Below are positions 1 to 38,233 of a stretch of 64,000 nt of DNA, in pieces. Position 1 is the stretch's first letter. Every line of letters starts with the position of its first letter. The stretch comes from an uncultured Victivallales bacterium (GTDB lineage: Bacteria; Verrucomicrobiota; Kiritimatiellia; UBA8416). The notes below the pieces were generated by a model. That model was not told the DNA's origin and made no database searches. It worked only from the letters and a program-made list of their open reading frames with translations. Both the position numbers and the translations under genes were made by a program. The DNA lies in assembly GCA_964576795.1 (NCBI GenBank), contig CAZNWT010000002.1:65033-129032 (forward strand). The letters are read 5' to 3'.

Positions 1-646
1 TGCCACCGATAGCGACCCCAAGCTTTTGAAGACAATTGAGACGCTTCCTGATGTGCTCTACTCGACCCGCCACCATGTAACGATACCTCGCCGCCCGGAA
101 GGCGTTTTGGTCTACATGCGGACCGCCGAACGCAATGATGCGTTGGCCTATGTGAACCAACAAGGTGAAAGCATCACGGAGTCACAGATGGAGATTCTAC
201 GCGCGGCTGCCTGCACCCCGGACACGCCTGCCCTGCCGCGGCATGACGCGCATCACGGACTGGTACAGGCTGGCGTTGAACACATTGTCCGCGAAGAGAA
301 GCGCATCGGCGGTCAGCTTGGCAACCCGCGCGGGGCGAGATTCCGAACTTACGAGCGTCTGAAGCACTATGTTCAGGATATTCAGGGAACCCTGTTTGAG
401 GCGAACTCCGATGAGATCAACAGAGTCCTTGATGAAATCTACAAATTTCCGCTGCGCCAAGTCGCGACGGACACACTCAATCGCCAACTCAAAGCTGGCA
501 TTAGTGACGATCAACTGGCTGAACTTGCCCTTATGCTGCGCGCCGAGGGGCGACTCTGTTTGGTTCACGATGAAGAAGAGGGCCGTGAGCCCCGCATTGT
601 CTGCTCCATGGGGCTATTCAGCGAACCAGGGGAGGAGCAGTCATGA
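1..646 (+). CDS. 3' end of a large upstream gene (5' part lies outside the window); unknown function; stop overlaps start of the next gene (ATGA)
   Basis: Open frame continues to nt 1 (frame 2: ATDSDPKLLKTIE...). Stop overlaps the start of the PglX-like gene, suggesting an operon. No recognisable catalytic motif in the visible 215 aa. A BrxC-like identity is speculation only. Confidence 0.3.
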   Translation, partial: ATDSDPKLLKTIETLPDVLYSTRHHVTIPRRPEGVLVYMRTAERNDALAYVNQQGESITESQMEILRAAACTPDTPALPRHDAHHGLVQAGVEHIVREEKRIGGQLGNPRGARFRTYERLKHYVQDIQGTLFEANSDEINRVLDEIYKFPLRQVATDTLNRQLKAGISDDQLAELALMLRAEGRLCLVHDEEEGREPRIVCSMGLFSEPGEEQS

Positions 647-3600
647 CATTGAATCTCTCTCGCTGCCGTGACTATCTTAACGGTTTCGAATTTCAGAAGC
701 TGTTTATCGAAGAACTCGGATGGTCGAATCCCGGCGCACGGCATGAAACCCCGTTTGCGATCAAGGAGAAGTCATTTTCGCGCTGCCCTCTGGCAGAGCT
801 GGCCGGTGTCATTGCTTTGGAGATTAAGTCCGAGGATGGTGAGATTCCCGATGCCAAGACGCGTCTGGCTATCCATAAGGTCGTCGCAAAACACTACCAC
901 GAGAATCTTCTTATCTTCGTGGATGCCGCTAGCACTCAAAGCCTCTGGTACTGGGTCAAACGCCAGGACGGCAAGCTACACCCCAGAAGCCACACCTATG
1001 TAAAGGGGCAGCCTGGCGATCTGTTCCTCAGCAAACTGAGCGCCATGGTGTTCGAGATTGGTGATTTCGAGGCGACCGGAGACGTCCCCCTCATTGAGGT
1101 GACCGAACGTCTCAAGACTGCGCTTGATGTAGAGCAGGTCACCAAGAAGTTCTACGGCGAATTTCAGGATCAACATCTTGCATTCATGGACCTGATCAAG
1201 GGCATCAAAGATGAGAAGGACCGCCGCTGGTATGCCTCCGTCCTCCTGCATCGTCTGATGTTCATCTATTTCCTCCAGAAGAAGTTCTTCTTGGACGGCG
1301 GGGATGAGTTCTATCTACAGAACAAACTCGCAACCATGCAGCGAAAGGGCAAGGATCTCTATTTTCAAGAGTTCCTCAAGCCTCTCTTCTTTGAAGGATT
1401 TGCCAAACCAGAAGACGACAGAAGTAATTCCATCAAACAGCTCCTCGGAAAGATCAGATACCTCAATGGCGGCCTATTCCTCAGGCACCGCATTGAGATT
1501 GACTGGCCGAACATCACCGTACCTGACGAAGCATTCAAGAACCTGTTGACGCTCTTCGCTGACTATTCATGGAATCTGAATGATACCCCGGGCGGTAAGG
1601 ACAACGAGATCAATCCAGATGTCCTAGGGTATATCTTTGAGAAATATATCAACCAGAAGGCCTTTGGTGCGTACTACACCCGCCCCGAAATCACGGAATA
1701 TCTGTGCGAGCGCACTATTCATCAGCTCATTCTCGATGGGGTAAACAAGAACGCCACGGGGGCATCCCGTCGGTTTGACGAAATAGGCGACCTCCTCCTG
1801 AATCTCGACGCACGTCTCTGTCAGCTTCTGCTTGATCATGTCCTCCCGGATCTTCGCCTGCTCGATCCAGCCTGTGGTTCTGCCGCGTTTCTGGTTGCTG
1901 CCATGAAAACTCTGATCAACGTTTACTCCGCCGTCATCGGGAGGATCGAATTTCTTGGGCATAAAGGGCTCATGAAGAAGCTAGAGAAGATCCAAAAAGA
2001 TCATCCAAGCATCAGCTACTTCATTAAGAAACGCATTATCACGGACAACCTGTTCGGCGTAGACATCATGGAAGAGGCTGTGGAAATAGCAAAGCTGCGG
2101 CTGTTTCTCGCCCTCGTTGCTGCGGCGAGCAAGGTGGAGGAACTCGAACCGTTGCCCAATATCGAATTCAACATCATGGCCGGCAACTCCCTGATCGGGT
2201 TGCTGCATGTTGATCCATCCAAGTTCAACGCCCTAACCGGCGGTTCTGCACATAAGAAAAAACCTGCCATGGTTCGCGAGCCGGGGCCTGATGAGCTTGG
2301 GTTTGCAGTTGAGAGTAAGGTTGCGAAGACGCGCAAGGAGACCGAGCGTGAATATTTGGCCAAGATCCAGGGGCAGAAATTCGAGGAGCTGCTCAAAGAG
2401 AAGAACGAACTGGTGGCCGTCTATCGCCGTGCCACGGGATACGGCACCGACCTCCAACAGTTGCGCGATGGCATTAAAGCGAAGAAACAGGCCGCCCAGA
2501 GCATTCTCAACAAGCTGTTGCTTGAGCAATTCACGAGCTTGGACATCAAGTATGAGCAAGTCACCTGGGACGACAAGAAGAACAAGGCCGGGCGCTCAAA
2601 GAAGCGGGATCTTCGGGAATCCGACATCCTTGCCCAGAAGCCTTTTCATTGGGGCTATGAATTCGACGAAATCATCAATAAGCGAGGCGGCTTCGACGCC
2701 ATCATCACTAACCCGCCTTGGGAGATCTTCAAACCCAACGGCAAGGAGTTCTTCGAGGACTATTCGGATGCCGTGTCCAAGAAGAAAATGACAATCAAAG
2801 AATTCCAGAATGAGCAAGCGAAGCTCCTGAACAATCCGAGGATACTAAGCTCTTGGCTGGACTATCTCAGCGGATTTCCACATCTCAGTGGTTTTTTCCG
2901 ATCGGCGGAGCAATACCACAATCAGATCAGCATCGTGAATGGCAAGAAGGCCGGAACCGATATCAACCTTTACAAGCTCTTCTTAGAGCAGTGTCACAGT
3001 CTGTTGCGATCCGATGGGCGCTGCGGTATTATTGTCCCGAGTGGAGTCTATACTGATCTCGGAACGAAACAGCTGCGCGAGATGCTGTTTGGTTCATCCA
3101 GGATCGACCGTCTCTTCGGCCTCTCGAACGAGAAATTTGTCTTCGAGAACGTCCATCATGCCTTCAAGTTCTGCATCCTGTCGTTTGTAAAGGGGGGGAC
3201 GTCTGAGTCGTTTCAGGCAGCCTTCCGAATCAACCCACGTGAAGCTGTTGCGGCTGACAAACTTGAGGAGTTTCTGCATACATCGTCGGCTCATATTGAT
3301 GTTTCAGTCGGACTAATCAGGAAACTGGCCCCTGATTCGCTATCAGTTATGGAATTCAGGAGTGCGCTAGATGTCCAGATCGCGAAACAGCTCCTCCATG
3401 TCCCCCTTCTCGGAGAAGACATCCCTGGTCAATGGAATCTACGATTCTCTGCTGAGTTTCACATGACCAATGACAGTCACCTATTCAAGACGGAATCAGG
3501 AAAGGGGCGATTACCCCTGTATGAGGGGAAGATGATCTGGCATTTTGATCATCTATATGCAGATCCAAAATGGTGGGTTGAAGAAAATGAGGGGCGTCTG

Positions 3601-4203
3601 AACCTACTTGGCAAGGAAGATGACTCGGGCCAGAAGCTAGGATATGAGTCAATTCGTCTTGGGTTTCGCGACATAACGGCAACAACAAATGAACGATCTC
3701 TTATTGCCTCAATAATCCCGGCGAAATGCTATGCGGGAAACACTCTGGTTGTGTCGTCCACGCAGAATGATCCCCACACTCTGGTGTTTGTTACTTCGCT
3801 CTTCGATAGCTTCACAATCGACTGGCTCATTCGAAAGAAGATAACGGCTCACTGTAACATGTTCTACATGTATCAGCTTCCGATTCCCCGCCTGACCAAA
3901 AAGGATGCGGCCTTGCTCTCTATTGTGGAACGGACAGCCCGCCTGATCTGCACGACTTCCGAATTCGACGATCTTGCGAAAGATATCTTTGGTGGGCGGG
4001 CAACGGCGAAATCTGTTGGTGTAACCGAGTCCGTAGCGTGCGCCAAGCTCCGGGCAGAGCTGGACGGACTCATCGCGCACCTGTACGGGCTAACGGAGGA
4101 TGAGTTCGCGCACATTCTCACGACCTTCCCGCTTGTGCCAGACCCCGTAAAGGTTGCGGCCCGCAATGCGTATCGTGATGTGGAGAAAGGACTGATCAAA
4201 TGA
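643..4203 (+). CDS. PglX/MmeI-family N6-adenine DNA methyltransferase (BREX PglX-like / type IIL-like), 1186 aa
   Basis: Motif 'GAYYTRPEI', SAM motif I 'LDPACGSAAFLVAAM' (~aa 407), motif IV 'ITNPPWEIFKP' (~aa 690), long C-terminal TRD-like region. The size is typical of PglX. Translationally coupled to both flanking genes. Confidence 0.75.
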   Translation: MTLNLSRCRDYLNGFEFQKLFIEELGWSNPGARHETPFAIKEKSFSRCPLAELAGVIALEIKSEDGEIPDAKTRLAIHKVVAKHYHENLLIFVDAASTQSLWYWVKRQDGKLHPRSHTYVKGQPGDLFLSKLSAMVFEIGDFEATGDVPLIEVTERLKTALDVEQVTKKFYGEFQDQHLAFMDLIKGIKDEKDRRWYASVLLHRLMFIYFLQKKFFLDGGDEFYLQNKLATMQRKGKDLYFQEFLKPLFFEGFAKPEDDRSNSIKQLLGKIRYLNGGLFLRHRIEIDWPNITVPDEAFKNLLTLFADYSWNLNDTPGGKDNEINPDVLGYIFEKYINQKAFGAYYTRPEITEYLCERTIHQLILDGVNKNATGASRRFDEIGDLLLNLDARLCQLLLDHVLPDLRLLDPACGSAAFLVAAMKTLINVYSAVIGRIEFLGHKGLMKKLEKIQKDHPSISYFIKKRIITDNLFGVDIMEEAVEIAKLRLFLALVAAASKVEELEPLPNIEFNIMAGNSLIGLLHVDPSKFNALTGGSAHKKKPAMVREPGPDELGFAVESKVAKTRKETEREYLAKIQGQKFEELLKEKNELVAVYRRATGYGTDLQQLRDGIKAKKQAAQSILNKLLLEQFTSLDIKYEQVTWDDKKNKAGRSKKRDLRESDILAQKPFHWGYEFDEIINKRGGFDAIITNPPWEIFKPNGKEFFEDYSDAVSKKKMTIKEFQNEQAKLLNNPRILSSWLDYLSGFPHLSGFFRSAEQYHNQISIVNGKKAGTDINLYKLFLEQCHSLLRSDGRCGIIVPSGVYTDLGTKQLREMLFGSSRIDRLFGLSNEKFVFENVHHAFKFCILSFVKGGTSESFQAAFRINPREAVAADKLEEFLHTSSAHIDVSVGLIRKLAPDSLSVMEFRSALDVQIAKQLLHVPLLGEDIPGQWNLRFSAEFHMTNDSHLFKTESGKGRLPLYEGKMIWHFDHLYADPKWWVEENEGRLNLLGKEDDSGQKLGYESIRLGFRDITATTNERSLIASIIPAKCYAGNTLVVSSTQNDPHTLVFVTSLFDSFTIDWLIRKKITAHCNMFYMYQLPIPRLTKKDAALLSIVERTARLICTTSEFDDLAKDIFGGRATAKSVGVTESVACAKLRAELDGLIAHLYGLTEDEFAHILTTFPLVPDPVKVAARNAYRDVEKGLIK

Positions 4204-5378
4204 AGAAACAACCAAGCCTAACGAGTGTACGCATTCGCAATTTCAAAGCTATACAGGATAGTGGCACCATTAAATTGGAGCCCCTAACGGTTCTGATTGG
4301 GAACAACGGTTCAGGGAAGAGTAGTTTTATCGAAGGCCTGGAAACGTTTGAACGAATAGTACAAGAGGATCTTGATAGTTCCATGGCGCCATGGCATGGA
4401 TTCGATCACGCTTGGAATCAGGGCGTGTCGCATGAAGACCGGCTAGAGACGAAGGAGAAGCGGGCATACCAGACAAATCCTATGACCTTTACCATCACGG
4501 GGAAACATGGAGGCCGCTTTTTGGGGGCTTTTCGCGCGGAGATGGATATTACCATGGGTAATGGAGGAAATGACCTCTTCATTCAGCGGGAGAAGTTGAA
4601 CTTCCGAAAGGGAATCAAGATAGAGCGCGACGACTCAGGGCTTGTGAAATATGACCCCATGCCGCCAGGACGCCAACAGGGCGGGCTGATGGCCGAGGGG
4701 AAATCTGTCATGCAGGACCTCGGTGCTGGTGGCATAGGTCACTGGCAATTTCTTACTCTGGTTCCCCAGAACATGGGGGAACCCGTCGCACAGAAGCGCA
4801 CAGGCGGCAGTATTCGGCTGAGTAAGGATGGCACGAATATAGCTCAGTACCTCCATTGGGTAAAACAGACCGATTCTGCTGCATTTGAGGGCATTCTTGA
4901 CACTATGCAGTACGTCCTTCCCTATGCGCGGGACCTGCAACCGAAGCTCACATCCGAACTCGAACGTGCCGTCAGCCTTGAAATGACCGAACAGGAGTAC
5001 AAGATTCCAGGTTGGTTGTTCTCTACCGGTACGCTTCGTATTCTTGCCCTTCTTGCCCTCCTTCGTAGCCCGGGACCTCCTCCATTAATTGTGGTAGAGG
5101 AAATCGAGAATGGGCTTGATCCCCGGACTATTCAGTTGGTTCTAGAGGAAATTCGAATGTCCGTCCAAGCGGGAGATACACAGGTTATACTAACCACTCA
5201 TTCTCCCTATCTTCTCGACATGCTGCACCTTCAGCATCTGGTGCTCTGTGAGCGAGTCGATGGTGTCCCTACGTTCGTTCGTCCGGCGGACTCAGAGGTG
5301 GTGAGTGATTGGGCTTCAAGCTTTACTCCTGGGAAGTTGTACACGATGGGACGTCTCGACAGGGGGTCGCGATCATGA
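4200..5378 (+). CDS. ABC/AAA-type ATPase (AAA_21/OLD-like, SMC-type head), 392 aa
   Basis: Walker A 'LIGNNGSGKSS', Walker B/D-loop 'LIVVEEIENGLDP', H-loop 'LTTHSPYLLD'. Start overlaps the stop of the upstream methyltransferase gene. Confidence 0.8.
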   Translation: MKKQPSLTSVRIRNFKAIQDSGTIKLEPLTVLIGNNGSGKSSFIEGLETFERIVQEDLDSSMAPWHGFDHAWNQGVSHEDRLETKEKRAYQTNPMTFTITGKHGGRFLGAFRAEMDITMGNGGNDLFIQREKLNFRKGIKIERDDSGLVKYDPMPPGRQQGGLMAEGKSVMQDLGAGGIGHWQFLTLVPQNMGEPVAQKRTGGSIRLSKDGTNIAQYLHWVKQTDSAAFEGILDTMQYVLPYARDLQPKLTSELERAVSLEMTEQEYKIPGWLFSTGTLRILALLALLRSPGPPPLIVVEEIENGLDPRTIQLVLEEIRMSVQAGDTQVILTTHSPYLLDMLHLQHLVLCERVDGVPTFVRPADSEVVSDWASSFTPGKLYTMGRLDRGSRS

Positions 5379-5971
5379 AGATTGGGATGATCTTTGAAAG
5401 CGGTGCGCAAGGAGCCGACTGGCAGGTCTGCAAGCATCTTGCAGAGAAGCTGAACCCGAGCTTGGATGTAGAATATGTCAACCACAGAAACAAACCCGAA
5501 ATGGTCAGTGACTGTGGCAAGGATGTCCGACTCCTTATTGCGCAGGGCTGCGAGAAAGTCCTCATCGTATGGGACCTCTATCCTTCACCGCACGGTAGTA
5601 ACCAAAAGCCATGTCGCAAAGCAGATCGAGACGCCATAATGCAGTCCCTCACGTATGCCGGAATGGAGGCCAAACCTGTTTGTCTTGTCTGTATCACCGA
5701 AGAGTTGGAGGCGTGGCTATTGGCAGACGGAAGAGCACTCACTGCATGTCTTTCAAGAACAAGCCATCCGGTAAAAAGGATCAGGAGCAGCAAAAAACCG
5801 GACCAGATCATCAGCCCAAAGAAGCGTCTGATTAAGCTGTTCAAGGAGAATGGGCGCGGGAAGTACAACAGTCTTGTTGATGCGATGCGCATCATCAAAG
5901 AGCTACCTGATATGACCCATATCCGGCGATCACCATCCTTCAAGCGTTTTGAGGAAAAGTTGACAACATGA
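5375..5971 (+). CDS. Small DUF4276-like protein, partner of the ATPase (TOPRIM-like? family assignment from memory)
   Basis: ATG at 5375 overlaps the ATPase stop (ATGA). The N-terminus 'MKIGMIFESGAQGADWQV' resembles the DUF4276 EG..E start. Such small proteins habitually follow AAA_21 ATPases in defence islands. Confidence 0.4.
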   Translation: MKIGMIFESGAQGADWQVCKHLAEKLNPSLDVEYVNHRNKPEMVSDCGKDVRLLIAQGCEKVLIVWDLYPSPHGSNQKPCRKADRDAIMQSLTYAGMEAKPVCLVCITEELEAWLLADGRALTACLSRTSHPVKRIRSSKKPDQIISPKKRLIKLFKENGRGKYNSLVDAMRIIKELPDMTHIRRSPSFKRFEEKLTT

Positions 5972-5985
5972 AGAGGCTTAGCAAA

Positions 5986-6076
5986 CCGCCAATGGCGGGC
6001 GAAAAGCAACTGTTGCTCCTGCACTATTTCTGTGTTGACAGCTCCAGTCGAATATACTACTCATTTGAGTAGCGTT
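5986..6076 (+). promoter_or_regulatory. Promoter/operator region of the lexA-like gene. Hairpin CCGCCAATGGCGG (5986-5998); palindromes AGCAACTGTTGCT (6005-6017), CTGTGTTGACAG (6030-6041, contains TTGACA) and CTACTCATTTGAGTAG (6056-6071, 5 nt before the ATG)
   Basis: Perfect inverted repeats read directly from the sequence. A -35-like TTGACA sits inside the second palindrome. The third palindrome overlaps the -10/RBS region. Confidence 0.4.
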
Positions 6077-6694
6077 ATGAAGGGGCCAACACCAAAACAG
6101 CGACAGGTACTGGATTACATCCGAGATGCAATCGACTCGGGGCAACCAACGCCATGCGTTCGGGAAATGCGGGACCATTTTGGGCTTCGCAGTACGAGAG
6201 CCGTCTGTGATCGTTTGGATGCCCTCGAGAAGAAGGGCTTGATTGATCGGGATCCAGGGAAAGCACGCTCCGTTCGCCTCGTGGGGGAGGAAGCGAGACA
6301 AGAGGCAACGGTGGTTGTTCCCGTACTGGGTCACATCCCGGCCGGCGTTGCTGTAGATGCCGAGGAGATGGTTGAAGGGACAATTCGTATCGGCGTCGAA
6401 ACGCTTGGCTTCGAGCCGACAGGGAAGACCTTCGCTCTGGTCGTCCATGGTGATTCCATGGAGGGTCGCGGAATTCTAGATGGCGACAGGATCATTGTTG
6501 ATGGAACACGGGAAGCGGAGAACGGCGACATGGTTGCGGCTTTGATAGATCAGGCGTGTTCTCTCAAGACTCTGGTAAAGGATGCAGACGGAGTATTCCT
6601 GAAGCCGGAAAACCCGGCATACGGGAACCTTATACCTGTTGATGACTTACTGATTCAGGGCGTGGCAAGAACGCTAATACGAACAATCGCTTAG
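6077..6694 (+). CDS. lexA: LexA-family repressor (N-terminal winged HTH + S24 self-cleaving peptidase), 205 aa
   Basis: wHTH 'QRQVLDYIRDAIDSGQPTPCVREM', Ala-Gly cleavage site 'IPAGVAV', Ser nucleophile 'HGDSMEG', Lys 'SLKTLVKD'. Sits 7 nt upstream of the second methyltransferase. Confidence 0.8.
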   Translation: MKGPTPKQRQVLDYIRDAIDSGQPTPCVREMRDHFGLRSTRAVCDRLDALEKKGLIDRDPGKARSVRLVGEEARQEATVVVPVLGHIPAGVAVDAEEMVEGTIRIGVETLGFEPTGKTFALVVHGDSMEGRGILDGDRIIVDGTREAENGDMVAALIDQACSLKTLVKDADGVFLKPENPAYGNLIPVDDLLIQGVARTLIRTIA

Positions 6695-6701
6695 ATAGCC
6701 A

Positions 6702-9700
6702 ATGAACAAGCAGAGCAAAACGATAAGCCGAAAGGCACTGGTCGACGCACACCGCAGAGAGGCGCCAGCAGGGCTGCTATTTTATGGCTCACCGGCCGAA
6801 ATGAAGGCCGACTCAGCGCTTACGCCCTATCTTCATGTGCTCATCCGCGCATGGGATGATTTGGGGCTGAGTGGAGTGCTCTGCGTTGATGGTTTGCCGA
6901 CGCTGTATCTTGCCGTCCGGAGTAAGCCGGTTTCCCCAAGCGATGGTGCGTCCCTACAGCGCCTCTTCTGGAATCAAGGCGTTGCAACAGTGCTTGTTGT
7001 TGCCGATGCAACAACCGTCCGCGTCTACTCCGGTTTGGCCAAGCCCACACGTGCGGATGCCTCAACGGGGGAAGACATCGGCCTGGTCGAGGCGCTGAAT
7101 CTTGCGGATTATGCTGTCAATGTGCGCACTTTCCTGCTGCGACTGGCAACGGGCAGTTACTATCGAGCCAACGCGGCGCATTTCTCCCCAGAGCAAACCG
7201 TTGACGCATATCTGCTGAACAACCTGCGGAAGCTCTGTGACAAGCTCGTCGAGAGCAACAGCCGACTCAACGTTGAGAAGGTACACACATTCCTGGCCCG
7301 TATTCTCTTCGCGTGCTACCTGATTGATAGGGGAATCATCGACTTGGATGACCACACAGAATGCCAGCGTTCTTCCGCAACGTCGCTTGGACAGATGCTT
7401 GACGCCTTGGGAACGGTCGAAGACAAGAGACATGCGCTTCATTGCCTTTTCGAAAGGTTGAAGAATGACTTCAACGGGAGCATGTTTGAGCGTGCGACCC
7501 TTTCCGAATGTAGGCAATTGAGTGCCGCTGCGTTGCAGAGTCTGACGGATTTTCTCCAGGGCCATGACCTAGGGACAGGACAATACACTCTTGATTTCTG
7601 GGCGTACGATTTCCGTTTCATTCCCGTGGAGACGATCAGCGCGGTCTATGAAGATTTTCTAAAACGCGAAGACGAGCCAGAAAAGCGGGCCAAGGGCGCA
7701 TACTACACGCCGAGGTTCCTAGCCGAGACGGTCATTGACTTGGCAATCCCTGCTGACGAAACGCTTGAGGGTAAACGCGTCCTTGATCCCGCCTGCGGTT
7801 CCGGCATATTCCTTGTAACGCTTTTTAACCGCATGGCAACCGCATGGGAAGCCGGGCACCCGACCTTGGCGCGTGACTATGGGCGCAAGGCGGACGCCCT
7901 AAACGCTATACTACGTGACCAACTTTGCGGAGTAGATGTCAACCCAACAGCATGCCGCATTGCTTGCTTCAGTCTCTACCTTGCATTTCTTGATCGCTTC
8001 GATCCGCCAGACGTTCAGGGCTATGTTCGTCGTAAGGGAAAACTGCCCAGCATTCTTCTCCATCGCGATCCTAATTCCGACGACTTGCCGACCTTCCCCG
8101 TAATCCGTGAAGACGACTTCCTGGCCCCCACCCATAAACTACCCGAGGGTTTCGATTATGTTGTCGGCAATCCGCCGTGGGAGGGGCGGGGGGCGAGGAA
8201 TGGCAAACATCATCAATTTGCCCGGAAGGTACCCGACCATCTCGCCGAAGGAGCCGTGGCCTGTCTGCTTCTGCCGTCAAAAACCTTCCTGAACGATAAG
8301 ACGAATCAGTTTCAGAGCGAGTGGTTGCGAACCGTGACCGTCGAGGAGGTGGTCCAGCTCGCCGACTACAGTTTCATCTTATTCAAAGAGGCGAAATGCC
8401 CGTGCATGATTGTGCATTTCAGGGCTGCTTTGCCTGACGTGACTGATGCTCTGATCCAGTATTCGGTGCCCAAAGTAACCCATATTGACCGGCGCGATGG
8501 CATCATCCCTGTGGCCCCCGCCGACAGGAAGTTCATCCCCCTCCGACGGATACTGGCTGCTGCGGATCAAGACGCTGCACCTGCAGTCTGGAAAGAATAT
8601 CTCTGGGGCACGCCCCGCGACATCAAGCTCCTCGATCTGCTTCAGCAAATGCCAAAACTGGGTGACATTGCAGGAAAGCCCCGCGAGAAACTGCGGTGGG
8701 TGAAAGGAGAAGGGTTCCAGCCTGCCACCAAAAGTACAACGAACCCGACTCAGCGCCCTTGGAAGAATACCAAACCATTCTTGAAGGCTTCCGCTCCGTT
8801 CCCCGGTCTGTTTGTCCTGCCGGATGACTGCTCTCCCCTCGGCGAGCGGTTCCCTCTGCTTCACCGTGCACGTAACCCCCGTATCTACGAGTCCCCCCTT
8901 GTGTTGGTGAGTCAAGGAATTGGCAAAGACGGATCTGCGAAAGTTACGTATTGCGCTGAGGACGTCGTTTTCCAGGACTCGCTTCAGGTAATCAGCGGGC
9001 CTGCCGAGGACGAAGACCTGCTGATCTTCTTAGCTGTATACGTGCGCTCAAAGCTCGCCAAGTACTTCCTGTTCAATGTTGCAGCGAACTGGGGAACCGA
9101 ACGGGACAAAATGCTGCTTACGGAGCTTCTCTCGCTTCCCCTTCCGTTGCCAGGTTGCGATTACGTTCCAGCGACTGCCGACAAAATCCTAAAGAAGATC
9201 GCCCAGCGGGTCAAAGCACTCAAGCGCCGAATGCTGACCACGCAGCCGGACGCAGATGACGTGTTGGCGCATCAGCAATGGACTGATAACCGGCGGAGAG
9301 AAACCGAAGACCTCCAGCTTGAACTTGATCCTCTTGTGTTTGAGTACTTCGGCCTCATAGACCAGGAGATTGCGTTGGTTGAAGACTGTGTTGACATCGT
9401 CATCCCAAGTGCGACGCCAGCCAGCTTGAGCGCAGAACTGCGAACCCGCGCCCCCATCCAGAAGAACAACTATGAGAACTACTCCGGCGGGCTTTCTTCG
9501 TATGCCGAGACTCTTGGTAACACACTCAATGAGTGGGCCGGGCAATCGCAATCTGACGTGAGAGTGTCGATATCCGGGGGTGTCCATAAAGCCAGTGACA
9601 TGGCCTGCCTTACGGCTGAACTAACAGCCGATCCGCAGCCATTCAGAGAAGTAACACCTTCAGACGAGACTTTCCTATCCGTCGCCAGGCTGGCCGAATC

Positions 9701-9887
9701 ATCGTCATCTCGATCAGGCTGCCTTGACTACCTGCGTGGCATCATTGCATTTGATGGGACTTTCATCCACATTTTCAAGCCGACGGCCCTCATTGGCTGG
9801 ACCCGAACAGCGGCGCTGAACGACGCCGCGGAGATCTATGCCCGTATAGCGGATGCTCGCAACGCCATGCGGGAGGTCGATGCGTGA
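6702..9887 (+). CDS. Second PglX/type-IIG-like N6-adenine methyltransferase with C-terminal TRD-like half and no recognisable nuclease domain, 1061 aa
   Basis: 'KGAYYTPRFLAETVIDLA', motif I 'LDPACGSGIFLV' (~aa 361), motif IV 'VVGNPPWEG' (~aa 489). Long C-terminal region resembles MmeI/PglX TRDs. Confidence 0.8.
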   Translation: MNKQSKTISRKALVDAHRREAPAGLLFYGSPAEMKADSALTPYLHVLIRAWDDLGLSGVLCVDGLPTLYLAVRSKPVSPSDGASLQRLFWNQGVATVLVVADATTVRVYSGLAKPTRADASTGEDIGLVEALNLADYAVNVRTFLLRLATGSYYRANAAHFSPEQTVDAYLLNNLRKLCDKLVESNSRLNVEKVHTFLARILFACYLIDRGIIDLDDHTECQRSSATSLGQMLDALGTVEDKRHALHCLFERLKNDFNGSMFERATLSECRQLSAAALQSLTDFLQGHDLGTGQYTLDFWAYDFRFIPVETISAVYEDFLKREDEPEKRAKGAYYTPRFLAETVIDLAIPADETLEGKRVLDPACGSGIFLVTLFNRMATAWEAGHPTLARDYGRKADALNAILRDQLCGVDVNPTACRIACFSLYLAFLDRFDPPDVQGYVRRKGKLPSILLHRDPNSDDLPTFPVIREDDFLAPTHKLPEGFDYVVGNPPWEGRGARNGKHHQFARKVPDHLAEGAVACLLLPSKTFLNDKTNQFQSEWLRTVTVEEVVQLADYSFILFKEAKCPCMIVHFRAALPDVTDALIQYSVPKVTHIDRRDGIIPVAPADRKFIPLRRILAAADQDAAPAVWKEYLWGTPRDIKLLDLLQQMPKLGDIAGKPREKLRWVKGEGFQPATKSTTNPTQRPWKNTKPFLKASAPFPGLFVLPDDCSPLGERFPLLHRARNPRIYESPLVLVSQGIGKDGSAKVTYCAEDVVFQDSLQVISGPAEDEDLLIFLAVYVRSKLAKYFLFNVAANWGTERDKMLLTELLSLPLPLPGCDYVPATADKILKKIAQRVKALKRRMLTTQPDADDVLAHQQWTDNRRRETEDLQLELDPLVFEYFGLIDQEIALVEDCVDIVIPSATPASLSAELRTRAPIQKNNYENYSGGLSSYAETLGNTLNEWAGQSQSDVRVSISGGVHKASDMACLTAELTADPQPFREVTPSDETFLSVARLAESSSSRSGCLDYLRGIIAFDGTFIHIFKPTALIGWTRTAALNDAAEIYARIADARNAMREVDA

Positions 9888-10519
9888 ATGCCCGAGCTTG
9901 TGTCGCTCTGTTTCCAGAAGACCAGATTCCCGTAATTCTTGATACGGTGCTCGACTGTGCTTCAACTCTTCGCAAGAAGAGCCCCAACGAACTTGAGAAC
10001 CACCTCTCTACCCGCCTTGTGAAGCGCCTCCAAGTCGATCTACGTATGCGCGGCGGCCCATTCGTAGTGTGTCCCGAATACCAAGTACTTGATAAATCTG
10101 TCGATGATGCTCAACACAAAGGTCACATTGATATTTGCTTCGTGACAACACAGGGAAGCGACACATACTTCGCCATCGAGGCAAAGAGGCTGCATGTCAC
10201 ATATGGAAAAGGAAAGTGGACATCTCTGGTTGGAGAATACGTTACGGGCAACCAAGGTATGATGTGTTTCGTGACGGCCAAGTACTCTGCCGCACAACAA
10301 GCGGGTGCAATGCTCGGGTATGTGTTCGACGGCGATACAAACAAAGCACGTGATGGCATATCCAAGTCCATTGACAACAACAGGACGAAACTCAACTTGG
10401 CAGGGACGCAGGGACTTCTGAAATCGCGGATTGTTCATCGAGCAGAGCACGTCGACGAAACGCAGCACCATTTCGGGCGGCGTCCCTTTACCATGTATCA
10501 CCTCTTGGTGCCCGTATGA
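9884..10519 (+). CDS. PD-(D/E)xK restriction-endonuclease-like protein, 211 aa
   Basis: 'VCPEYQV...GHIDICFVTTQGSDTYFAIEAKRL' gives an E...(P)D...ExK arrangement. Start overlaps the methyltransferase stop (ATGA). Confidence 0.5.
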   Translation: MNARACVALFPEDQIPVILDTVLDCASTLRKKSPNELENHLSTRLVKRLQVDLRMRGGPFVVCPEYQVLDKSVDDAQHKGHIDICFVTTQGSDTYFAIEAKRLHVTYGKGKWTSLVGEYVTGNQGMMCFVTAKYSAAQQAGAMLGYVFDGDTNKARDGISKSIDNNRTKLNLAGTQGLLKSRIVHRAEHVDETQHHFGRRPFTMYHLLVPV

Positions 10520-11076
10520 GTATCAGCGGGGAGACTCTGAGGACGGTTGGTGACGCTTCGATCCTGAAGCGCCCCAAGGTGGCGCTGTTCTGCTCGGTCA
10601 AATGTCCTGGAAGACTAATTCTTGAAACCTACGACCTCGCCAAGAAATTTCGCCGCGACGGCATTCTTGTTGTGAGTGGGTTCCATTCCCCCATGGAGCA
10701 GGAATGCCTCCGCATTCTGCTTCAATCCCCACACCCGGTCATCTGGTGTCTCGCTCGCGGCATGTATCGCCGCGTGCCTACTAGCCCGATAGATTGCCGT
10801 CCTGCAGTCGAGGGTGGCCGTCTAGCGATCGTATCCCCGTTTCCGGAGAAGATGCGCCACGTCACTGCGGAGACGGCGATGATTCGGAATCGCTTCGTCG
10901 CCAGCATGGCCGACGCCATCGTGGTTTCCCACGCGACAAGCGGAGGCAAGATGGATGCCCTATGTAGGGAGCTCCTCGCGGCAGGTAAACCGCTCTACAC
11001 CTTTGATCATCCGGCAAACGAAGAACTTCTGCGTGCTGGGGCACAGTCTGTTGCCGCTATGGCGGGTGCTGGTTGA
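10516..11076 (+). CDS. DprA/Smf-like (SLOG Rossmann) protein, 186 aa
   Basis: 'ILVVSGFHSPMEQECLRILL' resembles the DprA 'SGxARGIDxxAH' signature. 'RNRFVASMADAIVVSHATSGGKMDALCRELLAAGKPLYTF' resembles the DprA C-terminal 'RNRiiagls...vvveaa..SGaliTa..Al..gr.vfavPG'. Overlaps the stop of the nuclease gene. Confidence 0.55.
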   Translation: MSISGETLRTVGDASILKRPKVALFCSVKCPGRLILETYDLAKKFRRDGILVVSGFHSPMEQECLRILLQSPHPVIWCLARGMYRRVPTSPIDCRPAVEGGRLAIVSPFPEKMRHVTAETAMIRNRFVASMADAIVVSHATSGGKMDALCRELLAAGKPLYTFDHPANEELLRAGAQSVAAMAGAG

Positions 11077-11183
11077 ACGTAGCAGAGATACAGACGTCAT
11101 TGATCGGAATGGGGCATCGCCTTGCGGCCCGGGGGCGGGCCACCTCTATTTCAGTAAACCAACCCCATTCTGGAATAATGGAG

Positions 11184-11215
11184 CCGGGGCGCCCTCGCCC
11201 CGGCTGGTATGTGCC
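11184..11215 (+). terminator. GC-rich hairpin CCGGGGCG-CCCT-CGCCCCGG after the DprA-like gene (weak T tract)
   Basis: Inverted repeat read from the sequence, located 110 nt past the end of the plus-strand gene array. Confidence 0.3.
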
Positions 11216-11456
11216 GTTTCTGCGGGGCTCTAACTAATTTGGGCAACGCGTCGTGAAGGGGGTTAGGCAGGTGATCAATTTCTTAACAGCGCATAGTGTT
11301 TCCCCTCGGAAAAATATAGTGGTTTCCCTTAGTATGTTGTCGTACAATTATAACAATTGTGATGTGCGGTGCGTTCGACCAGTCTGGCCTATCAAGTCCA
11401 ATGGTGGATGGCGACTGCGATCTAGCACTTTATCAGACAAAATGGCGGGAACCTAA

Positions 11457-14400
11457 GTGGAATATCATGCGAAAGACCAAAGGGAGGGGCGAAGACGAGA
11501 CGGAGTGGGTCTCGTGTCTCTTTTTCTGGCCCTTCTGGTGTGTCCAATAGGGGGTTGGAGTCAGGAAGCGCCAGCGCAAACGGGGGATGGGGTTCGAGCC
11601 GGCTGCGAAGTCGACTATCCGCCGTTCTGCACCGTCGACGAACAGGGCTCGGCGCGAGGCTTCTCCGTGGAACTCCTACGCGTTGCGATAAAGGCAATGG
11701 AGCGTGACGTTACATTTCGCACGGGCCCTTGGGCGGAGGTCAAGGGGTGGCTGGCACGTGGGGAGATCGACGCGCTGCCGCTGGTCGGCCGCACGCTGGA
11801 GCGGGAAGCCCTATTTGACTTTACGGTTCCCTACATGACGATGCGCGGTTGCATCGTTGTGCGGCAAGGCTCTCGTGACATTCACAATCTTGGCGATCTG
11901 CGAGGCCGTCGCGTGGTGGTGATGGATGCCGACAATGCCGAAGAGTTTCTTCTGCGTGAGCAGCGCAATTTCGATATCATCAGTGTCCCCACCTTTGCGG
12001 ATGCACTGCGTATGCTCTGCGAAGGGGGGGGGCGATGCGGTTTTCATGCAGCGTTTGGTTGCGCTTCGTTTGATCGATGAGCTTGGACTTCAAGACTTGA
12101 TGATTGTGAATCGCCCGATCTCCGGTTATACGCAGGACTTCTGTTTTGCGGTTAAGGACGGCGATAGCGACACGCTTTCGATGTTGAACGAGGGCCTGGC
12201 GTTGGTGGTGGCCGACGGGACGCGCCGCCGACTTTACTCCAAGTGGTTTGCGGCACTCGAACTGCCGTCTGACCGCCCGATTGTCATCGGCGGGGATGAC
12301 AATTACCCGCCATTCGAGTTTCTTGATGAGAAAGGTAACCCGGCAGGTTACAACGTTGATCTCGTGCGGGCTGTGGCGCAGGCCGTGGGGATGGATATCG
12401 AAATACGGCTTGGACCGTGGGCCAATATCGTCAAGGAATTTGAGAAGGGCGAGATTGACGCTATCGAAGGTATGTCATATTCCTTGGACCGTGACGCGAA
12501 CGTCGATTTCAGTCCGCCGCACAACATCAATCATCGTGTTAGTGTTGTCCGCCGGGGAAACGGGCGACCGCCTTGCAACCTCGCTGAACTGCGGGATCTA
12601 TCCATCATTGTTCAGGACGGGGATATCCTGCATGAGTGGGTCGTGGCTCAAGGTCTGACAAACCGCTTGACGGTGGTGCGGGATCAAGAGGATGCGCTGC
12701 GGGAGGTGGCTGCGGGTCGGCAGGACTGTGCTCTTGTGGCGCGTATGTCTGCGCTGTATTGGATCGACAAGTTCAAGTTGCGCAATCTGGTTGTAGGTGA
12801 CGTGCCGCTGTTGGCTTCGCAATACTGTTTTGCTGTCCAGAATGGCGGCAAGGCTCTACTCGCGAATCTTAGTGAAGGACTGAAAGCAATCGAGCAAAGT
12901 GGTGAGTATCGGCGAATCCACGACAAGTGGATGGGGGTCTACGAAGAATCGTCGACATCGCTGTTGGACCTTTTGGGATATGTCGCTGTCGTGGCCATTC
13001 CCCTGTTGGGCATTCTTGCAATGGTTTTCCTCTGGTCATGGTCGCTACAGCGAAAAGTTTCAGAGCGCACGGCGGCATTGCGGGTTAGTGAAGCTCGATT
13101 ACATCGTGCCCAGCGTGTTGCTCTCATTGGCGACTGGGAGCTTGATCTTTCTACAGGCATGGTCGACGCTTCTGAGGAAGCGCGGTGCATCTACGGCTTC
13201 GATAATCGACTTTGGGGCATCAAGGAAGTGCAGGAGATTCCGCTTCCCGAATACCGGGCTATGCTAAATAGCGCTTTGACGGGACTGTGCGAGCGGGGCG
13301 AAGCGTATGATGTTACGTTTCGCATACAAAGACCGTCCGATGGTGCTCTGGTGGACGTCTATTCGGTGGCGAAGTATGACCGCGACAGAAACCTAGTCTA
13401 TGGTGTGATCCAGGATGTGACTGATCAAAAGGCGAACGAAGCGTTGCTGGCGGCCAGCGAGGAGCAACTGCGCTTGGTGCTGGATTCGAGTCCCATCCCC
13501 ACTGCCGTTGTCGATCCCGAGAATGTGAACATATTTTCTTGGAGTCGAAGCGCCTGTGAACTATTTGGTCACACACCAGCCACGACGGCCGAATGGTTCG
13601 AGATTGCCTATCCTGATCCTGACTACCGACGTGAGGTCCTCGAGCGGTGGAAACCATTACTGGCGAAAGGTCGCGATGAGGGGGGGACCGTTTGTGCCGG
13701 CGAGTATCGGATTTGCTGTCAGGATGGCTCAACCCGGGTATGCGAGATCTTTGTACGCTTTGTGCCCGGGAATCTGATCGTCACACTACACGACATCACC
13801 GAGCAGAATCGTCTGCAGGAGAGTCTGCTCCAGGCGCAGAAACTCGAATCCGTGGGCCGGTTGGCTGGGGGCGTGGCACATGACTTCAACAATCTTTTGA
13901 CGGGGATCATGAATTATGTCGATTTATGCCGCGACAATCTTGACGCTGACCATACGGTTCGTCAATGGCTTGATGAAATTACACGCGATTCGCAGCGCTC
14001 TGCGGGATTGGTTCGCCAGCTGCTGACATTTGCCCGGAAGCAGACCATTAAGCCGAAGGTGTTGGACCTCAATGACGCAGTGGCCGACACGCTTAACTTG
14101 CTTCGGCACCTGATCGGTGCAGATGTCAATCTGCTTTGGCAACCGGGAGCAAGTCTGGAGCCGGTGAAGATGGACCCGACCCAGCTTGACCAGATTCTTG
14201 CAAACCTTTGCGTGAATGCACGAGATGCTATCGCGGGGGTGGGAAAAATTACGATTGAAACCATCAATGCAACCATTAATGACGAATACTGCGCGGAGCA
14301 CGCGGAAGCGCGACCGGGCGATTTTATTGTGCTAGCGGTCAGCGATGATGGGTGTGGGATGGATGCGAAGACGCTCGTCAGCATCTTCGAGCCTTTCTTT

Positions 14401-24123: not shown

Positions 24124-24576
24124 ATCGTCCCCCTCGATTGTAATGCCATACTCATGACATCCGTTCTTATCCTGTTTTAGACTCTAGCATACGTGCGTGG
24201 CCTATTAACAAGCGAAATAATGAATAAAATCTGGATATTTTTCGTGGACTAACCCCCAGAATGCCACTAAGCGGGTGTTGGTGTTGATTGTGTTAAGATT
24301 CGAATGCTGGAAACAAAGGCTCTTCTCAGAAAATGGAGGGTTAGGCTCCGTCCCTACTGTTGTTCGGATGCCAAAATGAGAATTGCGGGTATGCCTCTGT
24401 TGTGACGGATGGCATCGAGCGAACCGCAGGATCGTTTAGGGACACGAGAAGTAGGCACACATCTCCGAGGTGTAGCCCTTCCGGCCTGTGGCCGGTGTGC
24501 ATCCCCGACAATCTATGGCTGGATTTTTACTCAGTATATTGTTGAGGTTAATATACGTTTATGTATATTAATCATT

Positions 24577-25212
24577 ATGAAATACGATAACACAGTGGCG
24601 CTTCTTGGATCCGAAGGGGTATTTGATCTCGCTACGGCAGTCCAACTTCTCAATGAGAAGCGTGAAACGGTTCGCGTCCAGCTCTCTCGCTGGTGCAAAG
24701 CGGGGAAGCTTCTTTCGCTACGCCGTGGGCTGTACGCGTTCCCAGAGCACAATTGCGGCCGAAAGGTGAATCCGGCAGAGTTGGCCAACCGGTTGCTTAC
24801 GCCTTCTTACCTCAGTCGCCATTGGGCGTTGGGTTTTTTTGGCTTGATTCCTGAATCCGTCACGACCTATACCAGCGTGACGTCGCGCACTCCCTGCCGT
24901 TTCAATAACATGTTTGGCGCCTTTCGTTATCAGCACGTGAAGCGTCAGGCTTTCTTTGGATATCGGCCTTATAAAATCGAGGGCAGAACGGTCCTGATGG
25001 CAGAACCGGAGAAGGCGTTGCTTGATTTGTGGCATCTTGAGAAAGGGGCATGGACGGCCGCACGGATGGAAGCCATGCGGTTTCAGAACGTTGAGCTGGT
25101 GGATGCGCAAAAACTGCGTGATTATGCTGAGCGCTATGCTTCGTCTCGGCTAACGGTGGCGGCTTTGGTATGGAGTATGACATTAGGTGAGACAGATGGG
25201 GTAGAATTATGA
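24577..25212 (+). CDS. abiEi: AbiEi-like antitoxin/transcriptional regulator (type IV TA)
   Basis: Start 'MKYDNTVALLG'. N-terminal wHTH followed by the AbiEi C-terminal domain. Stop overlaps the AbiEii start. Confidence 0.6.
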   Translation: MKYDNTVALLGSEGVFDLATAVQLLNEKRETVRVQLSRWCKAGKLLSLRRGLYAFPEHNCGRKVNPAELANRLLTPSYLSRHWALGFFGLIPESVTTYTSVTSRTPCRFNNMFGAFRYQHVKRQAFFGYRPYKIEGRTVLMAEPEKALLDLWHLEKGAWTAARMEAMRFQNVELVDAQKLRDYAERYASSRLTVAALVWSMTLGETDGVEL

Positions 25213-26009
25213 AAGATGAAGCATTGTCAATCGTTGCGGATGTGCATGATCCCGGACGCAAGCTGAACCTTCTGCGCGAGTATCTACAGTCCTGTGCGCT
25301 AAGATCGCTCCACGAGAGCGAGGCCTTTCTGAATCTGTCCTTCGTTGGTGGCACTGCCCTGCGCTTCCTGTTCAATCTGCCCCGTTTTTCAGAGGATCTG
25401 GATTTTTCTTTGGAGGCTCCCGATGGTTACGATGGTGAACGATGGATGAAGAAGCTAAAGACCGATTTTGAACTGGCGGGGTTTGAGACAGGGATTCGAT
25501 GGAATTCAAAGACGACTGTGCACAAGGCATGGCTTCGTGTAGGCGAGATTCTGCATGACACGGGCTTGGCGGCGATGCGGGAGCAGAAGCTCTCCATCAA
25601 GCTTGAGATTGACACGCGCCCTCCTGCCGGTGCCGCGTGTCAGAGGACCATTGTCACGAGGCATCGCATTCTGGCACTGCAACACCATGACCTGCCCTCG
25701 TTGTTTGCTGGCAAGATCCATGCACTCATGACGCGCGGCTACCCAAAAGGTCGCGACTGGTACGATCTCCTCTGGTATAGGGGACAACGACCGCGCCCCC
25801 AACCCAACCTGATTCAATTGCAGAATGCTCTGGATCAAACGCAGGGAAAAGGGGCTGTCGATGCCGAGGATTGGCGAACTGTTTTAAAGGTACAGTTCGA
25901 TTCCCTTGACGTGACAGCATTGGCCGAGGATGTTGCCCCATTTCTTGAACGCCCATCAGAGGCCGCCCTCTTGTCGCGAGACAACATCTGTTCCCTGCTA
26001 CAGTCGTGA
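25209..26009 (+). CDS. abiEii: AbiEii/AbiGii-family nucleotidyltransferase toxin (DUF1814)
   Basis: 'SFVGGTALRFLFNLPRFSEDLDFSL' is the nucleotidyltransferase hG[GS]…D.D motif. Confidence 0.7.
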   Translation: MKDEALSIVADVHDPGRKLNLLREYLQSCALRSLHESEAFLNLSFVGGTALRFLFNLPRFSEDLDFSLEAPDGYDGERWMKKLKTDFELAGFETGIRWNSKTTVHKAWLRVGEILHDTGLAAMREQKLSIKLEIDTRPPAGAACQRTIVTRHRILALQHHDLPSLFAGKIHALMTRGYPKGRDWYDLLWYRGQRPRPQPNLIQLQNALDQTQGKGAVDAEDWRTVLKVQFDSLDVTALAEDVAPFLERPSEAALLSRDNICSLLQS

Positions 26010-26097
26010 AAGGACGTAGAACGTTGCTCTGCGCCGTTTAACGCGGCGGGGATGTGCACACAACGGGATCAGATGTCAACACGCAATGGTATGCTAC

Positions 26098-26145
26098 GGG
26101 GTCAGATGTCAAAAATTTCCTAGAAAATTTTTGACGTCTGCCCCC
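26098..26145. repeat. P1 palindrome copy (~48-bp perfect hairpin GGGGTCAGATGTCAAAAATTTYCTAGAAAATTTTTGACGTCTGMCCCC). Other copies at 27726-27773, 28142-28189 (inside the RAYT-DnaA CDS), 28842-28889 and 29113-29161. Half-copies at 26063-26080, 28106-28128, 29041-29060 and 29162-29181
   Basis: Read directly from the sequence. Palindrome centred on TCTAGA, at least 5 full copies within 3.2 kb. Confidence 0.9.
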
Positions 26146-26414
26146 TTTTTCTTCTGACCCCTTTTTTACGGTACCAGCCGGTGCGCCACCATAGCATGTG
26201 TCATTCCGAGCGAAGTGCTTGCATCCCGGACTTGCTTCGGGGGCGAGGGATCTCGGTTTGGGCAACACGCCTTTAATGGATGACCCCGGTTATGAGTAGG
26301 CACACATTCCCGACAGTCCCTAATCGGGATTCCCAACTCCGAGGTGTAGCCCCAGATTGTATCTGGGCCCGCCTGACGGGCGGGAATACGTGATGCAATG
26401 ACGCACAGAGAGCA

Positions 26415-27576: not shown

Positions 27577-27784
27577 ATATCGTCCCCCGAATAAGTCAAC
27601 TAAACAGGAGTAGGTTGCCGGTTTTGGACGGTTAATGCAAGTAAGATCTTTTTGGTAGGCGAGGGTAGGCACACATCTCCGAGGTGTAGCCCTCTCATTC
27701 CTGCCTGTGGCCGGTGTAGGCCCACGGGGTCAGATATCAAAAATTTCCTAGAAAATTTTTGACGTCGGACCCCTGACTGGGTAA

Positions 27785-33826: not shown

Positions 33827-34160
33827 CCCTATGAATTAATGTGCACTTTAAGAAAATAATGCCACCAATTCAATATCTTTATAAAAAAGGAGGGGTAATG
33901 GAGTGAAGGCCATCTATTCCAGTTAAGATTTTGAACAAAGAGGAAGCAAAGGAATACAGAAAGCCTGCTATTCTAAAGATCAAGGAAGCTTGGGCTACTG
34001 CTGGAATTTGAACAGAAGGAAACGAAGAGAACGAAGAAGAAGACTCAACTCATGTTGCCGGATTGAAGTTGTTCTGTTGGACACATATGATACATTTAGA
34101 ATCACTGTAAAGAGATGCGTTTACAATGGGATCGAAGCTTTGTTTGATGGAGGCGATGTT

Positions 34161-35006: not shown

Positions 35007-35340
35007 GTAAAGAGGTGATATCCATGCAATCATTCTGCTGTCAATGATTCTGCCAAATCTCTCTTCTCATTTTTCTTAGGTTGCGGCTTTGCCTTCACCT
35101 ATTATTAGTCTTTTTGTGTGGTGATAAATCTGCCCTGTAACACGATGTCTCAGGCGTGCGAAATCCTGTCGCATTGATGTTATGCGGCGCAATAAACTAA
35201 AGCGAAAAATCATGTAAGACACTGGTTGTGTCGTTGTACGGTTTACCCTGCATTGCACAACGAGCATGGTTGTCAATTTTGTGCGCATGTGTAATAGTCT
35301 GTTTCAAGAATCAAGATTAGGCTGACTCGGTGCTCAGCTT

Positions 35341-38217: not shown

Positions 38218-38233
38218 AGCTCACGGACGAGGG

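Follow-up and report, generated by a model that had tools for sequence, protein, structure and literature searches.

The DNA considered here, which we call the window, is a 64-kb stretch of a contig from an uncultured Victivallales bacterium. On its forward strand a gene for a lexA-family repressor (205 amino acids, 6077-6694) is followed by genes for an N6-adenine DNA methyltransferase, a putative nuclease and a DprA-like protein, and it is preceded by a 105-bp intergenic region (5972-6076) that separates it from a DUF4276 gene with its stop at 5971. A first-pass annotation had pictured three perfect palindromes stacked in this promoter region. One of them belongs to a 20-bp dyad (6055-6074) that we consider quite likely to be an autoregulatory operator, a site through which the downstream LexA would repress its own operon. 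Together, lexA, the methyltransferase gene and the nuclease gene are best seen as a horizontally mobile, restriction-modification-like cassette.

A conserved dyad in the lexA promoter

The dyad, to which no strand is assigned, consists of TACTACTCAT followed by TTGAGTAGCG, and it begins 14 nt after a TTGACA hexamer and ends 2 nt before the lexA start codon. Its core is the palindrome CTACTCA-TT-TGAGTAG (6057-6072, no strand), which has 7-nt arms and a 2-nt centre and leaves 4 nt between its end and the ATG (6077). For comparison we collected loci encoding LexA homologues 40-83% identical to that of the window and aligned 15 promoters. The dyad is found upstream of all of the related lexA genes collected, that is, in the window, in L082/L123/L124, L083, L084, L085, L125, L128, L129, L131, L132, L134 and L136, and also in L014, L016, L133 and L002. 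The consensus among the related lexA promoters is TACTACTCAT followed by ATGAGTAGTA, and the relatives share one layout: TTGAC(A), then 13-15 non-conserved bases, then the dyad, then a start codon that comes 0-5 nt later or overlaps the dyad. A variant of this layout occurs in L134/L135, where the dyad is 22 nt after TTGACA and has the called ATG at its centre.

The main type of dyad reads TACTAC-TCATATGA-GTAGTA. In L128, L134, L014 and L016 it is replaced by TACTAT-ACATTTGT-ATAGTA (half-sites TACTAT-ACA..TGT-ATAGTA), while the dyad of L002 is ACTATCCA-TT-TGGATAGT and that of L133 is TAGTAGCCATATGGTCACTA. Such changes are shared between the half-sites: 86% of the cells in the alignment are symmetric, compared with 16-50% when the register is slid, and double-sided changes account for 11 cells as against 4.4 +/- 1.8 in shuffles, a value reached by only 1 of 500. 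The operator of L085 has a degenerate right arm (ATGTCTAGTG).

A position-specific scoring matrix (PSSM) was built from 14 sites (23.9 bits) and run with a threshold of 14 over 1.31 Mb, made up of the 64-kb window and 1.25 Mb of collected loci. Scores of at least 14 were obtained only directly upstream of lexA genes, and one borderline match lies about 130 nt upstream of another lexA. The sole match in the window is the one at 6055. The first-pass annotation had proposed that the palindromes could be a lineage-specific LexA box, and for 6057-6072 the position, the sequence, the symmetric covariation and the box layout all speak in favor of that proposal; for the other two it finds no support.

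The TTGACA that had been noticed within one of the palindromes is present at 6035-6040 on the forward strand. Of the 15 promoters in the alignment, 13 retain TTGAC, with 13-15 nt between it and the dyad, and we take this element as the -35 box because it is the only upstream element common to all of the relatives and stands at a fixed distance. A 17-nt spacer puts the -10 element at positions 4-9 of the dyad, which read TACTCA in the window (6058-6063) and TATACA in the variant type. The start codon is 33-38 nt beyond the -35 box in all relatives; in L014, L016, L133 and L136 the dyad's final base doubles as the A of the ATG, and in L134 the called ATG falls at the dyad centre, with the distance from -35 box to ATG kept. 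Given this short distance, we infer a transcription start in the dyad region, and the operon mRNA is probably leaderless or nearly so. A LexA dimer bound to the dyad would cover the -10 element, the transcription start and the start codon of the TTGACA promoter.

Comparison with known LexA boxes

The LexA box of the Verrucomicrobia is reportedly TGTTC-N4-GAACA, as described by Erill and colleagues in 2016. As a control, we examined the more distant lexA genes among the matches listed, and about 20 canonical ones from Verrucomicrobia (Chthoniobacterales, Opitutaceae, Luteolibacter and others) have TGTTCA-N2-TGAACA in the DNA that precedes them. The cassette dyad matches the layout of that box, a 5-4-5 dyad with an inner CA..TG, and both occupy the promoter of lexA. 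In length (14 bp) and spacing the core of the cassette dyad, TACTCA-N2-TGAGTA, agrees with that box, with T..CA-NN-TG..A invariant. Two of the five bases in each half-site differ, however (TACTC in place of TGTTC), and the site, which reads TACTC-ATTT-GAGTA, departs from the consensus to the extent that it is not among the window's one-mismatch matches to TGTTC-N4-GAACA. The cassette dyad is also conserved over 20 bp (TAC...GTA), and the cassette carries a methyltransferase-nuclease pair rather than DNA repair genes. Intermediates of the form TATTCA..TGAATA occur in Akkermansia (L006) and in L011.

The two kinds of operator go with different kinds of LexA. Residue 41 is R or K in the cassette LexA proteins rather than the T or F of the proteins with Verrucomicrobia boxes, and more generally all operators of the TA type are accompanied by S-x-(R/K) at LexA positions 39-41 and all of the TGTTC type by S-Q-T or S-P-F. 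The equivalent of residue 41 in E. coli LexA, Asn41, contacts bases. The correlation between operator class and recognition helix points to LexA as the binder, although it is confounded by phylogeny.

Compared with E. coli lexA (PMC9210283, PMC8565304), what the cassette would have in common is negative autoregulation by a dimer on a dyad that overlaps the promoter. The sequence and the spacing of the sites differ, and the cassette has a single operator where E. coli lexA has two. Nor did we see any regulon member beyond the cassette operon, either in the 64-kb window or in the collected loci. The first-pass statement that none of the palindromes is the E. coli SOS box, CTGT-N8-ACAG, is borne out, the only CTGT..ACAG pair (6030-6041) having a 4-nt spacer. 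The lexA promoters of L003 and L012 have GAACA-N-TGTTC-type arrangements (for example GAACACCTGTTC) beside TGTTC half-sites; these look like Gram-positive GAAC-N4-GTTC boxes formed by tandem sites.

The LexA protein

The window's LexA combines an N-terminal LexA DNA-binding winged helix (PF01726, 6.1e-20) with a C-terminal S24 peptidase domain (PF00717, 3.4e-23). It scores 169.8 bits against the TIGR00498 lexA equivalog model, where the cutoff is 110.95, which assigns it to the LexA family. The ATG at 6077 is the conserved start, and we rejected the GTG at 6032 given as the start of lexA in the open reading frame (ORF) list. The cleavage site, Ala89-Gly90, and the catalytic dyad, Ser127/Lys164, are invariant in 21 aligned homologues, and because both are kept, self-cleavage stimulated by RecA would be expected of this protein.

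In a rough neighbor-joining tree the cassette LexA proteins fall among those of the Verrucomicrobia type. A number of Verrucomicrobiota, with metagenome-assembled genomes (MAGs) of Akkermansia and Methylacidimicrobium among them, have lexA followed by a single ORF of 1430-1605 codons in which an ImuB-like Y-family (IMS) domain is fused to a DnaE2-like DNA polymerase III alpha subunit. These lexA-ImuB::DnaE2 arrangements are at 1755-6572 in L002, 1428-5735 in L003, 901-5193 in L004, 6698-11044 in L006 and 6628-11043 in L026.

The genes downstream of lexA

The methyltransferase gene (6702-9887, forward strand) starts 7 nt after the lexA stop and encodes a type IIG-like, gamma-class N6-adenine DNA methyltransferase of 1061 amino acids. 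Motif I (LDPACGSG) is at residue 362 and motif IV (NPPW) at residue 490. The protein matches the Pfam families N6_Mtase, MmeI_Mtase and Eco57I, and over residues 58-958 it matches the PADLOC model REase_MTase_IIG (PDLC03623; 235.8 bits, 2e-70); residues 1-333 have no Pfam family match. It has the methyltransferase motifs of type IIG enzymes and resembles their models over most of its length, and a separate 211-residue PD-(D/E)xK-like protein is encoded next to it.

The gene for this 211-residue partner (9884-10519, forward strand) overlaps the methyltransferase stop with its start (GTGA). We found 417 homologues, none with a Pfam domain, and D83, E99 and K101 are invariant in the family. The AlphaFold2 model has a predicted local distance difference test (pLDDT) score of 87.5, and its best fold matches in the PDB are to McrC at a non-significant E of about 0.05. 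These features are suggestive of a PD-(D/E)xK nuclease, and we refer to the protein as a putative one. No relative of it was found in viral contigs.

The DprA-like gene (10516-11076, forward strand; 186 amino acids) again overlaps its predecessor (ATGA). Its product is PsyrA/ShosA-like, matching PF02481 and, with 63 bits, the PADLOC PsyrA model. A tblastn search found this gene only in the window and in its duplicate contig L001, and in no other cassette locus. The first-pass annotation had suggested that a second regulator could control the downstream methyltransferase/nuclease/DprA operon. The close spacing of the genes, a 7-nt gap and then the GTGA and ATGA overlaps, and the conserved order of lexA, methyltransferase and nuclease genes support control of the downstream methyltransferase and nuclease genes from the dyad; the DprA-like gene, on the other hand, is outside the conserved unit.

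Distribution of the cassette

The order lexA, methyltransferase (about 1060 amino acids), partner (about 211 amino acids) recurs, amid unrelated flanks, in 14 distinct loci that represent several phyla; the contigs of L131, L134/L135 and L083 stop short of the partner gene. From the conserved gene order and the unrelated flanks, LexA looks like the dedicated controller of a restriction-modification-like module. The cassette is found among pilus genes in L125, next to an ABC transporter in L128, in a Desulfurivibrionaceae MAG in L136 (a Desulfobulbales host), and in two Acidobacteriota MAGs in L014 and L016. We did not find flanking repeats marking the ends of the cassette in 5700-11600 of the window.

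Several of these loci have features of their own. The cassette of L123/L124 (2253-16410) is between SbcC-like (jetC-like) and DUF3323/DUF2399 (jetD-like) genes, and it looks inserted into a host operon of the Wadjet type II-like composition DUF2397/DUF2398/SbcC/DUF2399. In L132 (8010-16988), which belongs to a 10.5-Mb genome, NikA-like and relaxase genes are on one side and IS66 transposase genes on the other, with a TIR/AAA gene nearby, which amounts to a mobile-element setting. The partner genes of the two Acidobacteriota loci follow the methyltransferase gene at 9286-9945 in L016 and 9413-10126 in L014. An HNH endonuclease (Pfam, 4.4e-07) takes the place of the 211-residue family in L016, which fits the third gene being the nuclease component. 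In L085 (1098-2639) lexA and the 211-codon gene are intact, but only fragments totalling about 0.9 kb are left of the methyltransferase gene; either this cassette is decaying or the 211-residue protein is non-lethal without the methyltransferase.

The methyltransferase-partner pair also occurs without LexA, in L137, in L138 and on the Mameliella plasmid pKUB112. The stretches that we read upstream of the methyltransferase genes of L137 and L138 contain no such dyad. Among plasmids we found only distant methyltransferase-partner pairs without LexA, plus unrelated lexA genes on Streptomyces plasmids. In the low-GC metagenome contigs L086-L089 an ORF at about 3971-5821 encodes a LexA domain (about 200 amino acids, 4001-4588, with GDSM and LKR motifs) fused to an N6-adenine methyltransferase (GNPPY), a Rosetta-stone link between the two proteins. 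A good promoter, TTGACT-N17-TATACT, precedes the fusion and is accompanied by a direct repeat of TATACT.

Other palindromes in the intergenic region

We located palindromes with a repeat finder and with an enumeration of our own. Besides 6057-6072 there are two with 6-nt arms and one central base, CCGCCA-A-TGGCGG at 5986-5998 and AGCAAC-T-GTTGCT at 6005-6017 (no strand for either). The former was not in the earlier list of palindromes despite sharing its start coordinate. The earlier picture of three stacked perfect palindromes is correct for 6005-6017 and 6057-6072. It fails for CTGTGTTGACAG (6030-6041), an imperfect palindrome, CTGT-GTTG-ACAG, in which pairing is limited to the 4-nt arms CTGT and ACAG around a 4-nt spacer; with a probability of 1/256 for each position and spacer length, chance alone should produce about two such matches in 105 bp. 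The CTGT/ACAG arms around TTGACA are different in each relative and are not conserved.

The palindromes in 5972-6076 are more clustered than chance would make them. When the 105-bp region was shuffled 5000 times with its dinucleotides preserved, at least three palindromes with arms of at least 6 and a gap of at most 4 occurred with P = 0.0036, and any arm of at least 7 with P = 0.03. Across the 64-kb sequence, only 0.8% of 105-bp windows hold three or more such palindromes. Within the window we found no further copies of the palindromes beyond the original sites, and AGCAAC-N-GTTGCT otherwise has only matches with two mismatches.

The two upstream palindromes appear to be local. Nothing like AGCAACTGTTGCT or CCGCCAATGGCGG was seen in any related lexA promoter. 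When the window is compared with its closest relative (83% LexA identity), sequence similarity reaches no further than about 10 nt beyond the -35 box on the upstream side, and the 198-codon genes that precede lexA in the window and L124 are unrelated; 5986-5998 and 6005-6017 are therefore outside the conserved unit. The same lack of relationship led us to rule out the upstream neighbor as a member of the cassette. Folded as RNA, 5965-6045 does no better than shuffles (z = -0.87), and a terminator scan of 5800-6300 called nothing. Both palindromes are probably local or chance features. GTTGACA occurs twice, 75 bp apart (5959-5965 and 6034-6040), the first copy being in the end of the DUF4276 gene; this is probably chance.

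The rest of the window

The window is largely an island of defence genes and mobile elements, and its annotated remainder contains no SOS genes. Directly upstream of the cassette, 643-5971 is a second defence-like block that includes a type IIG-like restriction/methyltransferase of 1186 amino acids (PADLOC, 407 bits) and the pair of an AAA_21 ATPase and the DUF4276 protein (PADLOC HEC-01A/B and, weakly, MADS3/MADS4). An AbiEii gene is at 25209-26009. The stretches 24409-28840 and 33990-47137 further contain genes for AAA_14/DUF4143, an IS200-like Y1 transposase, Bro-N, an SNF2 helicase, an IrrE-like M78 peptidase and a Schlafen/Fic-like protein, as well as an N6_N4 methyltransferase and a ResIII helicase (type III-like Mod/Res). 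At the far end are sulfatase and heparinase genes, typical of polysaccharide-degrading bacteria of the Planctomycetes-Verrucomicrobia-Chlamydiae (PVC) group.

Alternative explanations

A number of observations weigh against an autoregulatory LexA operator that serves a mobile restriction-modification-like cassette. The entire case for it is comparative. The promoter geometry is imperfect, as TACTCA is a poor -10 element, neither it nor TATACA is a good match to TATAAT, a better-looking TATACT is only 12 nt after the -35 box, and a simple sigma-70 scan of 5800-6300 called no promoter. The nuclease assignment rests on three invariant residues and non-significant fold matches, and the loss of the methyltransferase in L085 with the 211-codon gene kept is odd for a classical restriction enzyme. 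Finally, the nearest LexA relatives outside the cassette all head lexA-ImuB::DnaE2 operons, which is the classical SOS arrangement. The dyad might accordingly be the general SOS box of the lineage, with this LexA as the sole master SOS regulator, further boxes at recA, uvrA and similar genes in other parts of the genome, and the methyltransferase and nuclease as merely SOS-induced riders, and the fact that the protein passes the lexA equivalog model is in line with this. So is the fact that LexA proteins with the same type of operator head such mutagenesis operons in Akkermansia, Methylacidimicrobium and other Verrucomicrobiota, and so is the absence of any canonical TGTTC-N4-GAACA that stands out in the window (4 one-mismatch matches, with 2.2 expected). 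That about 170 kb of cassette-bearing DNA holds no further box is weak evidence against a general role, SOS boxes being sparse and no SOS gene being present there. A general box would not, however, lead one to expect three genes that travel together between unrelated flanks, interrupting a Wadjet-like operon in one genome and adjoining relaxase and IS66 genes in the 10.5-Mb genome. The methyltransferase-nuclease pair also exists without LexA, and the cassette LexA of the Acidobacteriota and Desulfobulbales groups with the Verrucomicrobia-type proteins and not with those phyla's own. On balance we consider the general SOS box unlikely, though a serious competitor.

The symmetry of the dyad might also be that of an RNA hairpin in the 5' leader, controlling translation or stability of the lexA mRNA. 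Arm complementarity is kept by double-sided changes, as a hairpin would need, and the stem, 4 nt from the ATG, is part of the minimum-free-energy fold of 6041-6110. That fold is nevertheless no better than those of shuffles (z = -1.54) and has no Rfam match, and the arms are conserved in sequence and not just in pairing, with positions 3-5 and 8-9 carrying 1.2-1.8 bits each. The conserved TTGAC, 13-15 nt before the dyad, should direct transcription to begin within the dyad or beyond it, and the start codon overlaps or is within the dyad in L014, L016, L133, L134 and L136. As the layout moreover fits a known class of LexA box, we regard a hairpin as extremely improbable. Hardly more credence is due to a different binder of the DNA, whether the LexA of the host, some other repressor, or the cassette methyltransferase acting as a methylation-sensitive switch. 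The evidence on the binder is indirect here, and there are precedents, the lexA2 promoter of Leptospira being bound by both LexA1 and LexA2 (PMC3789691) and some restriction-modification systems being regulated by their own methyltransferase (PMC3874152). Against such a binder, the operator class covaries with the LexA recognition helix, the site has the layout of a LexA box and accompanies the cassette into phyla with different host factors, and the LexA-less pairs of L137 and L138 lack it in the upstream stretches read. We also considered the possibility that all of the palindromes are functional, 5986-5998 and 6005-6017 being sites for a second regulator of the operon, as the first-pass annotation had suggested. 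Only 3.1% of the 105-bp windows in the sequence hold at least two such palindromes, which lends this some appeal, but neither of the two is conserved in related promoters, both lie in the junction with the DUF4276 gene, outside the cassette, and there are no close copies elsewhere in the window and no notable RNA structure or terminator. We consider it improbable.

Proposed regulation and its significance

Under the autoregulatory operator that we favor, bound LexA would repress its own operon, consisting of lexA, the N6-adenine methyltransferase gene, the putative nuclease gene and, in this genome, also the DprA-like gene. RecA activated by DNA damage, or by the ends or single strands arising from phage attack, would trigger self-cleavage of LexA, and this would de-repress the methyltransferase and the nuclease. 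Negative autoregulation would then bring expression back to a low steady state. The make-up of the region, the conservation and symmetric covariation of the dyad, the restriction of its motif to lexA promoters, the operon structure and the distribution of the cassette are observed, whereas LexA as the binder, RecA-dependent induction, nuclease activity and a function in defence are all things that we infer.

LexA paralogues that control an operon of their own are known. In Pseudomonas putida a LexA2-type paralogue controls its own operon, lexA2-imuA-imuB-imuC (PMC5261740), and LexA2 of Leptospira interrogans, encoded in a prophage-like region, bound only its own promoter (PMC3789691). As with these, the cassette lexA comes first in a transferable operon and its promoter contains a divergent palindromic box of its own, and its cotranscription with the cargo is predicted from the gap and overlaps and from the gene order in 14 loci. 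The difference is in the cargo, which in the cassette is a restriction-modification-like methyltransferase and a putative nuclease.

Another comparison is with the C proteins of restriction-modification systems (PMC3874152). In both cases a regulator heads a restriction-modification operon and binds a palindrome in its own promoter (for the cassette, putatively so), an arrangement that would make expression of methyltransferase and nuclease autoregulated once the operon has entered a new host. C proteins, however, are small, belong to the Xre-type helix-turn-helix proteins, lack a protease domain and usually activate and then repress, whereas the cassette regulator is a 205-residue LexA with an S24 self-cleavage domain, making it a functional analogue only. 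It is conceivable, although we would put it at rather less than an even chance, that a mobile module recruited a complete self-cleaving LexA as its controller instead of a C protein, that restriction and methylation are thereby gated by RecA, and that the operator classes diversified together with the recognition helix. If true, this would be a direct and previously undescribed wiring of the SOS signal to restriction-modification or defence. We found nothing in the literature on LexA-controlled restriction-modification, and in the literature searched there appears to be no description of either the operator variant or a restriction-modification cassette headed by LexA, although each ingredient has precedents.

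That LexA boxes drift between phyla, and that LexA paralogues controlling only their own operon exist, was known; here the same logic seems to serve a restriction-modification-like cassette capable of moving from one phylum to another. Should the repressor be responsive to RecA, restriction and methylation would be raised upon DNA damage or invasion. The current picture of restriction-modification control comprises C proteins, antisense RNA and promoter methylation, and a link to RecA would be added to it, in line with the growing number of cases in which defence systems have regulators that sense damage. The operator variants TGTTCA, TATTCA, TACTCA, TATACA and TATCCA, together with the helix variants, form a natural data set on how LexA specificity changes. 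For annotation there is also a warning, in that a gene called "repressor LexA" in a MAG need not encode the master regulator of the SOS response.

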